A stretch of 64,000 nt of DNA from Candidatus Thorarchaeota archaeon. Lineage in GTDB: Archaea; Asgardarchaeota; Thorarchaeia; Thorarchaeales; Thorarchaeaceae. Position numbers and translations under genes: made by a program. Positions within the stretch are counted from its first letter, which is position 1. Every line of letters starts with the position of its first letter. Shown piece by piece: positions 23,102-26,072 of this stretch. The DNA lies in contig JBHLQH010000002.1 of assembly GCA_048884965.1 (NCBI GenBank), forward strand, positions 134,935-198,934, given 5' to 3'. The notes beneath the pieces are model-generated. The model saw only the letters and a program-made list of their open reading frames with translations. It had not been told where the DNA came from and did no database searches.

Positions 23102-23629
23102 TCAAATCCGGAGTTCCATGGAGATATTACCATCCTCTGTTGAGTCAGTTTCGTGGAATCCTAGGCTTTGATAGAATCTTACCAACTGCTGTCCCTTCTC
23201 GTTCACTTGCTCAGTATCAAGACGGATTAATAAGTATGATTTTGCCTTGGCGTAGTCTATGAGGGCTCGCATCAATAGCGACCCTAGTCCACGTCCAGTG
23301 GACTTTACCGCAATGGTATCAAGATAGAGCGCAGAATTAGGATTGTCAGGATCCTCATACGCTAGGACGACTGCTTCTCGTCCCCCTGAAGAGGCGATAA
23401 AGAAGAAGAGCAGGTCCTCATTGGCTAAGCGCTCCTCAAGCTCCTCAGAGCTATAGCGAAGTTCTGCACGAAATGCTCCTGATTCGAGCTCCATGAACCA
23501 CTGATAGTAGGGATCCTTGCTTCCAGGGTAGATGATTCGCGTCTGAGTTTCAAGCAGCGCGTCTATCTTTGGAATCAATCCGTTCCAGAAACTCAAGGCG
23601 GATCGCGCATCTCTATCAGTGGTCCTCAC
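23102..23629 (-). CDS. GNAT family N-acetyltransferase
   Basis: 'YLDTIAV...GRGLGSLLM' acetyl-CoA motif A; 'LVRFYQSLGF' motif B. Confidence 0.9.
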   Translation of the reverse strand: MRTTDRDARSALSFWNGLIPKIDALLETQTRIIYPGSKDPYYQWFMELESGAFRAELRYSSEELEERLANEDLLFFFIASSGGREAVVLAYEDPDNPNSALYLDTIAVKSTGRGLGSLLMRALIDYAKAKSYLLIRLDTEQVNEKGQQLVRFYQSLGFHETDSTEDGNISMELRI

Positions 23630-23640
23630 GTGGTCATGCC

Positions 23641-24630
23641 TCAGAGCCCATATCTATAACATGCAGACTCGATGAGCCGTCTTATGAGCTCATCATAGGA
23701 GTAGCCGGCCTTTGAAGCCATATATGGGAAGAACGAGAAGTCCTTGTTGTCCATATCAAAGTCCATCCCTGGCAATGGATTAATCTCCAAGAAGTATAAG
23801 TCCCCAGCTGAGTCCATACGGAAGTCAATTCGACCGAAGTCAACGACATCAAGATGCGTGCACACCGCAAGGGTAGTAGTTTCCAAGCGATTCCTTAGCT
23901 CATCAGAGATCTTCGCAGGACAGCTGTAATTTTCAATCTCATCATACTTCGTCTTTGCCCTCTGCCCGAAGACCCCACCGACTTCCGGGGGCAATTTAGA
24001 GAAATCAACTTCCGTGATTGGAAGAATCTCTGGTGTCTTGCCAGATCTTCCCAGCATGCCAACGCTGAACTCCCTTCCCTGAATGAATTGCTCAATCAGT
24101 ATGTTCTGCTGATATTCCCCAAGCATGGACCCGAGCTTTCGAAGCATCTGCTCCTTAGAATGAACTACATTGTCCTCGTTTATCCCCACAGATGAGCCTT
24201 CTTCATTTGGCTTTAGAATTGATGGATATACGATATCAAATGTTTCAGCTTCTTCCAACGAGTTCGCGACATGGAATCTTGGAGTTAGAATGCCGTGATA
24301 ATGAAGAACCTTCTTTGTCCAAGCTTTATTCAAACCCACTGCTGTGGTCAGGACATTCGAGCCGATATAGGGAATCCCCAGCATCTCTAGGATTGCAGGA
24401 ACATGCGACTCTCGGCTTTCACCTCGCACACCTTCTGCCCGATTGAAGACAAGATCAGGTCGCTGAGCCTTTAGGTTCTCAGATACATCTTCATCCGCTT
24501 CAATGAATAGGCACTCGTGTCCAGCTGCTTCAATCCCATGACGAATCAATTCAATAGTATGAGGTGGGTCGTATTCGACCTGAAACTCATCGTCTTGAAT
24601 CCTAGTATTTACAACGATCGCTACACGCAT
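23641..24630 (-). CDS. D-alanine-D-alanine ligase-like ATP-grasp enzyme
   Basis: 'GIPYIGS', 'KPNEEGSSVGI', 'EQFIQGREFSV', 'GRIDFR', 'FLEINPLPG'; ATG 24630 preferred, with TTTTAA ~30 nt upstream. Confidence 0.9.
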   Translation of the reverse strand: MRVAIVVNTRIQDDEFQVEYDPPHTIELIRHGIEAAGHECLFIEADEDVSENLKAQRPDLVFNRAEGVRGESRESHVPAILEMLGIPYIGSNVLTTAVGLNKAWTKKVLHYHGILTPRFHVANSLEEAETFDIVYPSILKPNEEGSSVGINEDNVVHSKEQMLRKLGSMLGEYQQNILIEQFIQGREFSVGMLGRSGKTPEILPITEVDFSKLPPEVGGVFGQRAKTKYDEIENYSCPAKISDELRNRLETTTLAVCTHLDVVDFGRIDFRMDSAGDLYFLEINPLPGMDFDMDNKDFSFFPYMASKAGYSYDELIRRLIESACYRYGL

Positions 24631-24689
24631 GATAGTTTCGCAGATTAGGTGTACATACTTCCTTAAAACATTCACATTGTGTTCAAATT

Positions 24690-26072
24690 CTAGAGCTCGA
24701 ACGAGCGGATTTCCTCACGATAGATGGACATGACATCCTCTTTTAGTTCTGGAGGAACACTGATTGGCTCGTAGAGAGAGATGTATGTCTTGAAGAGCTC
24801 ATCTTCACGTTCTTTTGCTTCTTCATGAAGCTCTGACTCACAGAACTTATCCATGAGAGACCCTTTTGCACCCTTATTTGCTGCTGAATAGAAAGCGAAG
24901 AGTTGCTCATTCCTAGCAGTTTCGGTGTTCGCATAGGTAAGCTTGGACTTCCCTCCAAAGAGAGTGAAGTGATGAATCTTCTCAGCCCCATCCAGCATAT
25001 TCTCCTTGAAGCCCACTTCTTGTGGATCCATACCAGAGCCAGCACACAAGAGGTACATCTTAGCGCAGACGCTGCATGAATGACACCAACGATAATCACG
25101 TCCAGCTTCTGTTTCCGTGAAGCAGCTCATCTGATATTTAGCAATCTCTGGGTATCTATGAACCAGGGTCCTCTGGACCATCATATCCATCAGCGGTTCA
25201 ATGAGGCTACCTGTCTGAATTGAACCACCTGAGAACCTTCGAGTAATCTGATCAATTTGGACAGTCCATTCGTGTGATTGATCATAGCAAGGATAGACAG
25301 TCCATTCTCCTTTCTCATCCATATATGTTTCAGACGCGGTCTGTTCGTTGCCAAACAGAAGATATCTTCCATTGAGTTTGTATGCAAAGGGGATCATATC
25401 AAGTGCGTATTCAGTTGTCTGGAGACCCCAACCGAACTCTGAGAACGGCAATCCAAGATGCTCATAGTCACGAAGCTTCCCTGTATCATGATGCAGAATG
25501 TGCATGGGTTTTCCGAATTCTTTCTCCCATTGCTTTCCTAGGGCGCTCTTATGTTTCTCCTCATAGGTCATACTCTCCTCAACAATATATACGATTTCAG
25601 GGTCAAGTCCAAGTTCTTGAGCGACAGCATAGGTGAGTAGACTGTCCTTTCCAAAGCTCATCCCGATAATCGCGCGTTCAGCTCCTGAAACAAGGGTATC
25701 AGCGGGTTGATTAATCGGATCTTTAGAAAACTCATATTTAGTATTGAAGAACTGCTGCATCAGACGATTCGTATCTGTGCCATCAACTTCAGTACACGAA
25801 GGAATATCCCGAACGAAGTTCTCGAAGAAGTGTGGCATCAGGATTGCCCGGGGCGTGTCGTAGGATATCAATGGACTATCAAATACAATTGGCAGATGCA
25901 TTGTAGTAGCCAATGCGAGATTATCCCTCAATGCGATTTGGGTTTCTTTTGGAGTAGCATCCCAGTATTCCTTACCGTAGAGAATGGTATAGGATTGCTT
26001 CTTGAAATCTACAGAAAGACCTCTCTCCACTATTGAGGAACTGATGTTCAGCGGTTCATTCTTAGCGACCAT
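24690..26072 (-). CDS. MurL-like PP-loop ATP-dependent enzyme (putative amino-acid/peptide epimerase)
   Basis: PP-loop 'SFGKDS', 'FGNEQTAS', 'SLIEPL', 'MSCF...RWCHSCSVC' follow the recalled MurL motif order. Confidence 0.65.
   Translation of the reverse strand: MVAKNEPLNISSSIVERGLSVDFKKQSYTILYGKEYWDATPKETQIALRDNLALATTMHLPIVFDSPLISYDTPRAILMPHFFENFVRDIPSCTEVDGTDTNRLMQQFFNTKYEFSKDPINQPADTLVSGAERAIIGMSFGKDSLLTYAVAQELGLDPEIVYIVEESMTYEEKHKSALGKQWEKEFGKPMHILHHDTGKLRDYEHLGLPFSEFGWGLQTTEYALDMIPFAYKLNGRYLLFGNEQTASETYMDEKGEWTVYPCYDQSHEWTVQIDQITRRFSGGSIQTGSLIEPLMDMMVQRTLVHRYPEIAKYQMSCFTETEAGRDYRWCHSCSVCAKMYLLCAGSGMDPQEVGFKENMLDGAEKIHHFTLFGGKSKLTYANTETARNEQLFAFYSAANKGAKGSLMDKFCESELHEEAKEREDELFKTYISLYEPISVPPELKEDVMSIYREEIRSFEL

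Follow-up and report, generated by a model that had tools for sequence, protein, structure and literature searches.

Why does an archaeon without Mur ligase genes carry, side by side, relatives of two enzymes of bacterial murein synthesis? The question is raised by a 64,000-nucleotide stretch of DNA (hereafter the window) from a Candidatus Thorarchaeota archaeon (GenBank assembly GCA_048884965.1, contig JBHLQH010000002.1, positions 134,935 to 198,934 of the forward strand), in which the gene of a PP-loop ATP pyrophosphatase resembling the epimerase MurL precedes those of an ATP-grasp ligase of the D-Ala-D-Ala ligase (Ddl) family and a GNAT acyltransferase. Within its family, to our knowledge, only MurL has been characterised, and it has been documented solely in an alternative route to murein used by a few bacteria. 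We find that the archaeal PP-loop protein is a genuine though remote homologue of MurL, and that the genes recur across phyla together with a gene for a pyridoxal phosphate (PLP) enzyme resembling threonine synthase. We give an even chance to the reading that these four genes form a biosynthetic module, self-contained and horizontally mobile, whose product is a small modified peptide or an amino-acid conjugate. The initial annotation, made from the letters of the window alone, had described three consecutive minus-strand genes, an arrangement that the open reading frames (ORFs) confirm; with the convergent PLP gene, the four genes are, in window coordinates:

24690..26072, minus strand: MurL-like PP-loop ATP pyrophosphatase (ORF, 460 amino acids)
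23641..24675, minus strand: Ddl-family ATP-grasp ligase (ORF, 344 amino acids from GTG 24675; 329 amino acids from ATG 24630)
23102..23629, minus strand: GNAT acyl-CoA N-acyltransferase (ORF, 175 amino acids; PF00583)
21978..23099, plus strand: threonine-synthase-like fold-type II PLP enzyme, convergent on the GNAT gene (PF00291)

The PP-loop protein is a distant homologue of MurL

The MurL-like protein comprises an N-terminal alpha/beta domain (approximately residues 1-125), a PP-loop core, a four-cysteine (Cys4) site and a helical C-terminal region. Four motifs mark it:

25641..25658, minus strand: PP-loop SFGKDS, a variant of SGGxDS, which binds ATP pyrophosphate (residues 139-144)
25332..25349, minus strand: NEQTAS motif (residues 242-247; N242-E243 invariant here and in MurL)
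25191..25208, minus strand: SLIEPL motif (residues 289-294; S289-L290 common with MurL SLLRP)
25065..25127, minus strand: SC-x12-C-x2-C-x2-C, a QueC-type four-cysteine site, probably for zinc (residues 316-336, SCFTETEAGRDYRWCHSCSVC)

All four are invariant or nearly so among 16 orthologues of 59-68% identity, as are S139, G141, K142, D143 and S144 of the PP-loop without exception. GKDS, NExxAS, SLxxPL and SC...RWCxxCxxC had initially been described as standing in MurL order. The translation and real MurL sequences bear this out: bona fide MurL proteins carry GGGKDS, SNERSAS, SLLRP and SCN...RWCGxCPKC in identical order and with similar spacing. The bona fide MurL proteins were those of Pseudomonadota genes, six of which exceed the 700-bit NCBIfam cut-off and several of which lie beside a murD2-like gene.

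A Pfam scan of the MurL-like protein returned no family at E <= 0.01. Its sole named family match was NCBIfam NF041275 (MurL), at 25 bits (E 6e-6) over residues 237-369 only, which falls short of the equivalog threshold of 700 bits. When the family profile was aligned with seven MurL proteins by hhalign, the match had 96.5% probability (E 7.7e-10) over 274 columns (122-450 versus 119-422) and spanned the PP-loop core, the cysteine site and the C-terminal helices. The nearest clusters in the ESM Atlas were likewise MurL (feature score 0.97), with full-length template-modelling (TM) scores of 0.77-0.81 to MurL family models, MurL-Mur ligase fusions included. About 20 positions are invariant in both families (16 and 7 sequences), including GKDS, N242-E243, S289-L290, S316-C317, W329-C330, C333, C336 and E389. 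Against a thin QueC profile made of two archaeal QueC proteins, hhalign gave 5.6% probability and aligned the PP-loop only, and the MurL-like gene was not among the PF06508 (QueC) matches in its own genome. The choice between MurL and QueC that the initial annotation had left to be checked thus falls to MurL, both by sequence profile and in the ESM Atlas. Together, these data show that MurL and the PP-loop protein are truly, if distantly, homologous.

A MurL orthologue, in contrast, is ruled out by the score (25 versus 700 bits), by the loss of NGHIP and HKPFECVGE and by N-terminal domains that cannot be aligned by sequence. A PDB sequence search with the single protein gave just a weak match to the PP-loop of TtuA (E 0.014), and one with the family profile gave nothing meaningful. 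No longer, fused relatives of the MurL-like protein were found, in a search that is itself weak evidence.

The superfamily extends further. A 444-amino-acid relative from Pseudomonadota (L093:3938-5272, genome G281) with FSGGKDS and HCCACDKC reaches just 51.6 bits with the MurL model and may form a third branch. The ESM Atlas also contains fusions of the MurL-like fold to a creatininase domain (787 amino acids, Thermodesulfobacteriota) and to Mur ligase domains (~767 amino acids, Bacteroidota), as well as unnamed clusters from Thermoplasmatota and Bacteroidota.

The predicted fold is that of the QueC group

An AlphaFold model of the MurL-like protein (predicted local distance difference test score (pLDDT) 82, predicted TM score 0.84) had as its closest folds QueC (Z 13.2 to 2pg3, 208 residues aligned, root-mean-square deviation 3.5; Z 13.0 to 3bl5) and QatC (Z 13.2 over 301 residues, model 6-395, N-terminal part included), followed by Cap9 (Z 11.4). 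Other PP-loop enzymes (ThiI, LarE, TtuA, MnmA) reached Z 9.5 or less. Model and motifs together give the protein a QueC-type fold with a PP-loop and a C(x)nCxxCxxC metal site. The spacing before CxxCxxC is x12 here versus x15 in the MurL sequences fetched, and the published motifs are C(x)8CxxCxxC for QueC and C(x)19C... for QatC (PMC13329287), so that the cysteine motif of the MurL-like protein is a spacing variant of the QueC zinc site. QueC, QatC and Cap9 all adenylate a carboxylate (PMC13329287), and on the modelled fold the MurL-like and MurL families both belong structurally to this QueC-like, carboxylate-adenylating PP-loop group.

The N-terminal domain folded well alone (pLDDT 91.8). 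A structure search with it over 48,161 chains gave at best Z 6.6, to RNase-H-like alpha/beta domains, which is within noise, and no fold was assigned. MurL itself (loci L082-L094) has the QueC-type layout of a PP-loop plus C-x15-CxxCxxC. A 2026 survey of the QueC family makes no mention of MurL (PMC13329287), and the structural link between the two may be unremarked in the literature.

The ligase keeps the Ddl catalytic core and lacks the D-Ala1 site

The ligase belongs to the D-Ala-D-Ala ligase family, as had been proposed: it matches PF07478 Dala_Dala_lig_C (E 6.8e-34, 117.6 bits; gathering threshold 24), and true Ddl enzymes head its PDB matches (E 4e-25). The ligase nevertheless lies below every NCBIfam Ddl cut-off (best 183.9 versus 243 bits). 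Aligned to 1iov, and across 72 orthologues, it retains EGSS and, in GRIDFR and FLEIN, the equivalents of R255/D257/E270/N272, that is, the catalytic Arg/Asp and the Glu/Asn Mg ligands of Ddl. Also kept is the Ser of the D-Ala2 carboxylate site, which in the DdlB structure binds the second D-Ala by its carboxylate. Missing is the D-Ala1 site, with which Ddl holds the first D-Ala (Glu15 in GGxSxE; His63 in HGxxGEDG); in place of these motifs, the ligase has family-specific ones, NTR...EF.VEY and NRAEGxRGESRES. Alignment to Ddl fails over its first 43 residues, and six residues are inserted before the SF.P loop. This pattern fits an enzyme that still takes an alpha-amino acid as its amine substrate, releases a product whose C-terminal carboxylate is free and uses an acyl donor other than D-Ala. 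Because conservation begins at residue 19, the real start is probably ATG 24630, giving 329 amino acids.

The longer relatives of the ligase (P0278-P0356) are fusions of three kinds. The closest are those to a KamA-type radical-SAM 2,3-aminomutase (~700 amino acids), with 37-43% identity over 90-98% of the length of the ligase. Next come fusions to an M20 peptidase (~725 amino acids, for example in Nitrosopumilaceae) and to an S-adenosylmethionine (SAM)-dependent methyltransferase (~653 amino acids). These three families of bifunctional ATP-grasp fusions appear uncharacterised.

The PLP enzyme is probably not a threonine synthase

The third minus-strand gene had been called an acyltransferase, and its PF00583 (Acetyltransf_1) match agrees (E 2.2e-8, 34.8 bits; gathering threshold 20.7). 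The acyl-CoA loop, GRGLG, is conserved in 61 orthologues and conforms to R/Q-x-x-G-x-G/A.

The convergent PLP protein matches PF00291 (E 1.7e-52) and NF004996 (360 bits), and its closest structures are those of threonine synthase, ThrC (E 5e-29). It carries the expected lysine motif:

22245..22271, plus strand: NPTGTQKDR with K96, the PLP Schiff-base lysine (from the translation and alignment)

The protein passes the NCBIfam model PRK06381 ('threonine synthase'), which no protein exceeded in any of 14 model genomes, but reaches only 73.7 bits on thrC TIGR00260 (cut-off 167.1), and a canonical thrC sits elsewhere in the genome. In the alignment, the phosphate-binding motif of ThrC, NSVNPxRxEGQK (NSVNPHRLEGQK), is replaced by DSVKAISLDAYSE, and across 68 PLP orthologues this region is not conserved as in ThrC. 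The site corresponds to Asn154/Ser155/Arg160 of Thermus thermophilus ThrC, which hold the phosphate of O-phosphohomoserine. A housekeeping threonine synthase is thereby ruled out, by score (73.7 versus 167.1 bits), by the separate thrC and by the lost phosphate motif. The gene is a dedicated thrC paralogue, presumably with a different substrate.

Four genes are linked across phyla

Linkage was assessed in 80 loci from species-representative genomes, with gene presence called at E <= 1e-8. The loci come from Thor-, Hermod-, Hod-, Heimdall- and Borrarchaeota, many Bathyarchaeia, and metagenome-assembled genomes (MAGs) of Spirochaetia, Krumholzibacteria and Rickettsiales. All four genes occur together in 64 of the 80; most incomplete loci are explained by a contig edge or a fast-evolving GNAT gene, and one Bathyarchaeia chromosome has no PLP gene nearby. 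The comparison of neighbourhoods that had been proposed therefore shows tight linkage in other genomes, and neither of two outcomes set beforehand as contrary to the initial annotation, a PP-loop protein closer to QueC and genes unlinked elsewhere, was found. That annotation was right about the linkage of its three genes but not about the membership, as the convergent gene for the ThrC-like PLP enzyme belongs to the module as a constant fourth component. This gene adjoins the module in 72 of the 80 loci, convergent after the GNAT gene in 39, divergent upstream in 28 and co-directional upstream in 5, whereas the GNAT gene follows the ligase gene in nearly all. Three gene orders keep the four-gene set, down to 34% identity. 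In a divergent Asgard lineage (34-36% identity), the genes lie on one strand in the order MurL-like, PLP, ligase, GNAT; on a Spirochaetia chromosome (L043:709-8911, the four genes at 4829-8911), the order is PLP, MurL-like, ligase, GNAT, with the genes overlapping end to end. Adjacency of a ligase to a MurL-type enzyme also recurs in bacteria as murD2-murL, both in the MurL loci examined here and in published work (PMC8788868).

Comparison of the neighbourhoods revealed no conserved fifth gene, and only the four genes are common across phyla. In the window, the region upstream of the module (26174-29544) encodes a LiaF-C-like protein, an ArsR-type regulator and two paralogous multi-pass membrane proteins, and on the other side a tetratricopeptide repeat (TPR) protein gene (20752-22005) overlaps the start of the PLP gene. 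These LiaF-like, ArsR, membrane and TPR genes are syntenic in Thor genomes only. In the spirochaete, genes for an M20 peptidase, a DUF5058 protein and two proteins without a Pfam family precede the module on the same strand, and a major facilitator superfamily transporter gene lies downstream.

Two features read from the DNA bear on transcription:

24663..24668, minus strand: TTTTAA TATA-like box, ~35 nucleotides 5' of the ligase ATG 24630
26118..26156, minus strand: GGGGGG-loop-CCCCC hairpin followed by a T-rich run

The TTTTAA box, initially placed ~30 nucleotides upstream of the ligase, was recovered at close to that distance, within the 59-nucleotide spacer between the MurL-like stop codon and ATG 24630. 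Of 33 related loci whose spacer is 50 nucleotides or longer, 28 have a TATA-like box at -50..-20, compared with 3.3% of control windows inside genes; these loci share ancestry, and AT content is higher in intergenic than in coding DNA. An internal promoter for the ligase and GNAT genes is plausible. The hairpin and T-run come after the upstream LiaF-like gene, so that the MurL-like gene would begin a transcription unit.

The module is patchily distributed, and the genome has no Mur ligase domain

Among 301 Asgard genomes of at least 80% completeness, 35 contain the module; within the genus to which the window belongs, one of the four other genomes has it. The stretch itself was matched in sediment and estuary DNA metagenomes from two studies, probably with the source sample among them, and in no RNA data set. 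A quick maximum-likelihood tree of the module, rooted on MurL, puts Bathyarchaeia in two separate, well-supported places, one of them nested among Asgard, and bacterial sequences inside archaeal clades. This patchy spread and the mixing of phyla fit horizontal spread. MAG binning errors are possible in this distribution, for example in the 'Actinomycetota' and Krumholzibacteria rows.

The window had been reported to contain no Mur ligases, and this extends to the whole 95.7%-complete genome, in which no Mur ligase domain (PF08245 Mur_ligase_M) and no Asp/Glu racemase was found; one gene has an alanine-racemase fold. Murein synthesis is ruled out by the same two absences. Also ruled out is a defence system, for which PADLOC gave only weak GNAT-domain similarity. 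A literature search found no paper on the module or on MurL relatives in archaea.

Nanoarchaeota carry related clusters

In Nanoarchaeota, genes for two Ddl-like ligases stand on one strand with one or two MurL-like genes and with those for a PLP enzyme of the ornithine/diaminopimelate/arginine decarboxylase family and for KamA, in these clusters:

L119:6054-12253 (genome G781)
L120:7914-14019 (genome G826)
L123:7140-17513 (genome G924)
L122:7716-12406 (genome G879)

The MurL-like proteins of these clusters are 31-33% identical to that of the window, and some clusters add a third ATP-grasp enzyme and an M20 peptidase. MurL-like genes were present in 24 of 301 sampled Nanoarchaeota genomes, and in at least 9 of 23 cases a ligase of this type lies within a few kilobases; both tallies take in the unpublished genomes G952 and G953, on which no claim rests. 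The clusters look like the equivalent of the module in DPANN, perhaps centred on beta-lysine or diamino acids. Because DPANN pair both families with KamA and a decarboxylase-like PLP enzyme instead, the ligase and the MurL-like enzyme look like the constant core, around which the amino-acid-tailoring enzymes vary. A Nanoarchaeia MAG (L078:1305-5909) offers a context that differs from the module and is again tied to D-amino acids: genes for a DUF1611 protein and a DapF-like epimerase come after a tandem pair of MurL-like paralogues, 41% and 34% identical to the protein of the window.

A proposed pathway and its alternatives

What might the four enzymes make? The reading that we favour is a small peptide, capped at its N-terminus and adenylated at its C-terminal carboxylate. 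The ThrC-like PLP enzyme, having lost the phosphate residues of threonine synthase, would supply or tailor a non-standard amino-acid building block. The Ddl-family ligase would then couple a carboxylate, via an acyl-phosphate, to the amine of an alpha-amino acid, leaving a free C-terminal carboxylate. This carboxylate would be adenylated by the MurL-like enzyme, converting ATP to AMP and PPi, and most likely the last residue would be inverted from L to D before hydrolysis, as in MurD2/MurL. The GNAT enzyme would cap a free amine with an acyl group. The order of these steps, the epimerisation and the nature of the product are what we infer from the enzyme families.

At the MurL-like step we favour epimerisation, with a confidence of even or a little less, because no characterised relative is closer than MurL and because the scheme of a ligase followed by a MurL-type enzyme is found repeatedly. 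MurL activity is an ATP-dependent, AMP-forming, unidirectional L-to-D epimerisation of the C-terminal residue, known only from assays of the Xanthomonas, Micromonospora and Salinispora enzymes (PMC5808125, PMC8788868), and the published mechanism is a proposal only (PMC8788868). We infer that an acyl-adenylate of an N-acylated residue would readily lose its alpha-proton, for example via an oxazolone. Several observations weigh against epimerisation and the pathway around it. NGHIP, NHQ-SK and HKPFECVGE, invariant in MurL, are not conserved in the MurL-like family in a MAFFT alignment of 16 and 7 sequences, where their columns hold other invariant residues (R201/Y203, T383 and others); NHQ-SK survives as H-x-W, in the hhalign alignment only. 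The proton-exchange apparatus may therefore differ or be absent. No sequence alignment was found by hhalign between the N-terminal domains of the MurL-like protein and MurL, and two of the three known chemistries of the QueC-type fold make amides, not epimers (PMC13329287). The first substrate site of the ligase is unlike that of Ddl, and the role and order proposed for the GNAT and PLP enzymes are guesses. The MurL-like enzyme might instead trap the acyl-adenylate with ammonia or an amine, producing a C-terminal amide or an extra amide bond as in the synthesis of N-acetylglutaminylglutamine amide (NAGGN), a serious rival that we nevertheless consider unlikely. Amidation would match the closest solved folds, QueC taking a carboxylate to an amide and a nitrile with NH3 and QatC and Cap9 joining a carboxylate to a protein N-terminus, and it would fit the absence of several MurL-specific invariant motifs. 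The two MurL-like paralogues beside two or three ligases in DPANN could equally be extra bond-formers, and the trio of GNAT, ATP-grasp and PP-loop enzymes resembles the NAGGN pathway, in which, as Sagot et al. reportedly described in 2010, Ngg combines GNAT and ATP-grasp and AsnO is a PP-loop amidotransferase. By sequence, however, MurL is far closer than QueC, the module has neither a glutaminase domain nor a glutaminase partner, and the NE and SL motifs, common to MurL only, lie outside the ATP and Zn sites.

The remaining alternatives assign the module another substrate or direction. ATP-grasp enzymes such as RimK act on proteins, and the module could modify a macromolecule, whether a protein terminus or an envelope polymer, for example by RimK-like addition of residues with later processing of the new C-terminus, or by QatC-like conjugation. 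The QatC match does take in the N-terminal domain (model 6-395, Z 13.2), and Thor modules adjoin genes for surface and membrane proteins; yet these neighbours are not kept elsewhere, no conserved fifth gene encodes a target protein across phyla and PADLOC gave no hits, which makes this improbable. Little credence is also due to catabolism or salvage of D-amino-acid peptides from bacterial necromass in sediment, for example by D-to-L inversion, re-ligation, or N-acetylation as detoxification. All hosts come from sediment, peat or estuary, in one Nanoarchaeia locus MurL-like paralogues neighbour DUF1611 and a DapF-like epimerase, and M20 peptidases adjoin or fuse with related ligases, but two ATP-consuming activations and acetyl-CoA would be costly for catabolism, no transporter or peptidase is fixed in the module and MurL works in the L-to-D direction only (PMC5808125). 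That MurL and Ddl are both bacterial murein enzymes could suggest that the genes are left over from stem-peptide synthesis for murein or pseudomurein, or are a variant of it. We regard this as extremely improbable, given that the 95.7%-complete genome has no Mur_ligase_M and no Asp/Glu racemase, that the proteins score far under the MurL and Ddl orthologue cut-offs and that only 35 of 301 Asgard genomes contain the module.

A broader idea, which we hold tentatively and judge somewhat unlikely, is that Asgard, Bathyarchaeia and DPANN share a ribosome-independent way of building peptides, in which, after each ATP-grasp ligation, a MurL-like enzyme would use ATP to invert the residue just added at the C-terminus from L to D, and interchangeable tailoring enzymes (ThrC-like PLP enzyme and GNAT, or KamA and a decarboxylase-like enzyme) would supply the blocks. 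If true, it would be a general route to D-amino-acid peptides or envelope peptides in organisms without murein. The locus reveals a sister family of MurL tied to ATP-grasp ligases in archaea that make no murein. Should epimerisation hold, it would define a route to D-residues in archaeal metabolites and widen the role of C-terminal peptide epimerisation; should amidation hold, it would be a new NAGGN-like solute pathway. The locus also poses an annotation hazard, as pipelines name its genes D-Ala-D-Ala ligase and threonine synthase, implying a wall function that the genome does not support. The enzyme families and the ligate-then-process logic are already known, with MurD2/MurL as precedent; new here are the direct profile test of MurL versus QueC, the finding that the phosphate site of ThrC is lost, the placing of the fold with QueC and QatC, the tree and the KamA-linked DPANN clusters.

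Comparison with known systems

Like the MurL-like protein, QueC, QatC and Cap9 have a PP-loop plus a C-terminal Cys4 site, and with QatC the structural match also takes in the N-terminal extension. QueC, however, is half the size of the MurL-like protein, and the module differs from all three systems in having no 7-deazaguanine genes, defence partners or PADLOC hit. The ligase shares with Ddl and Van ligases the PF07478 domain, EGSS, the catalytic Arg/Asp, the Glu/Asn Mg ligands and the D-Ala2-site Ser; unlike them, it lacks the D-Ala1 motifs, falls below the Ddl cut-offs and has the six-residue insert, and its closest fused relatives bear KamA, M20 or methyltransferase domains. The PLP protein is a fold-type II PLP enzyme with the NPTG-x-x-KDR lysine motif, as are threonine synthase and its offshoot cysteate synthase, but in contrast to threonine synthase it stays below the TIGR00260 cut-off and is without the O-phosphohomoserine phosphate motif.

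In the synthesis of NAGGN (Ngg/AsnO) and of mammalian N-acetylaspartylglutamate, the three enzyme classes of the module form an N-acetyl dipeptide, and its C-terminal carboxylate is afterwards adenylated. For NAGGN this likeness is one of enzyme classes only. Unlike in NAGGN synthesis, the PP-loop enzyme here is of the MurL/QueC type rather than the asparagine-synthetase type, there is no glutaminase and a PLP enzyme is added; Pfam and NCBIfam scans of the module proteins gave no asparagine-synthetase family. MurD2/MurL differs in that the partner there is a Mur ligase and here an ATP-grasp enzyme, in the ~21% identity of MurL to the MurL-like protein, and in that the module adds PLP and GNAT partners and resides in a host without murein genes. 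In both systems, nevertheless, the gene of an amide ligase adjoins a MurL-type gene whose product has a length of ~450 amino acids, the same domain layout and, in common, the GKDS PP-loop, NE, SL, SC...WCxxCxxC and a conserved C-terminal Glu.

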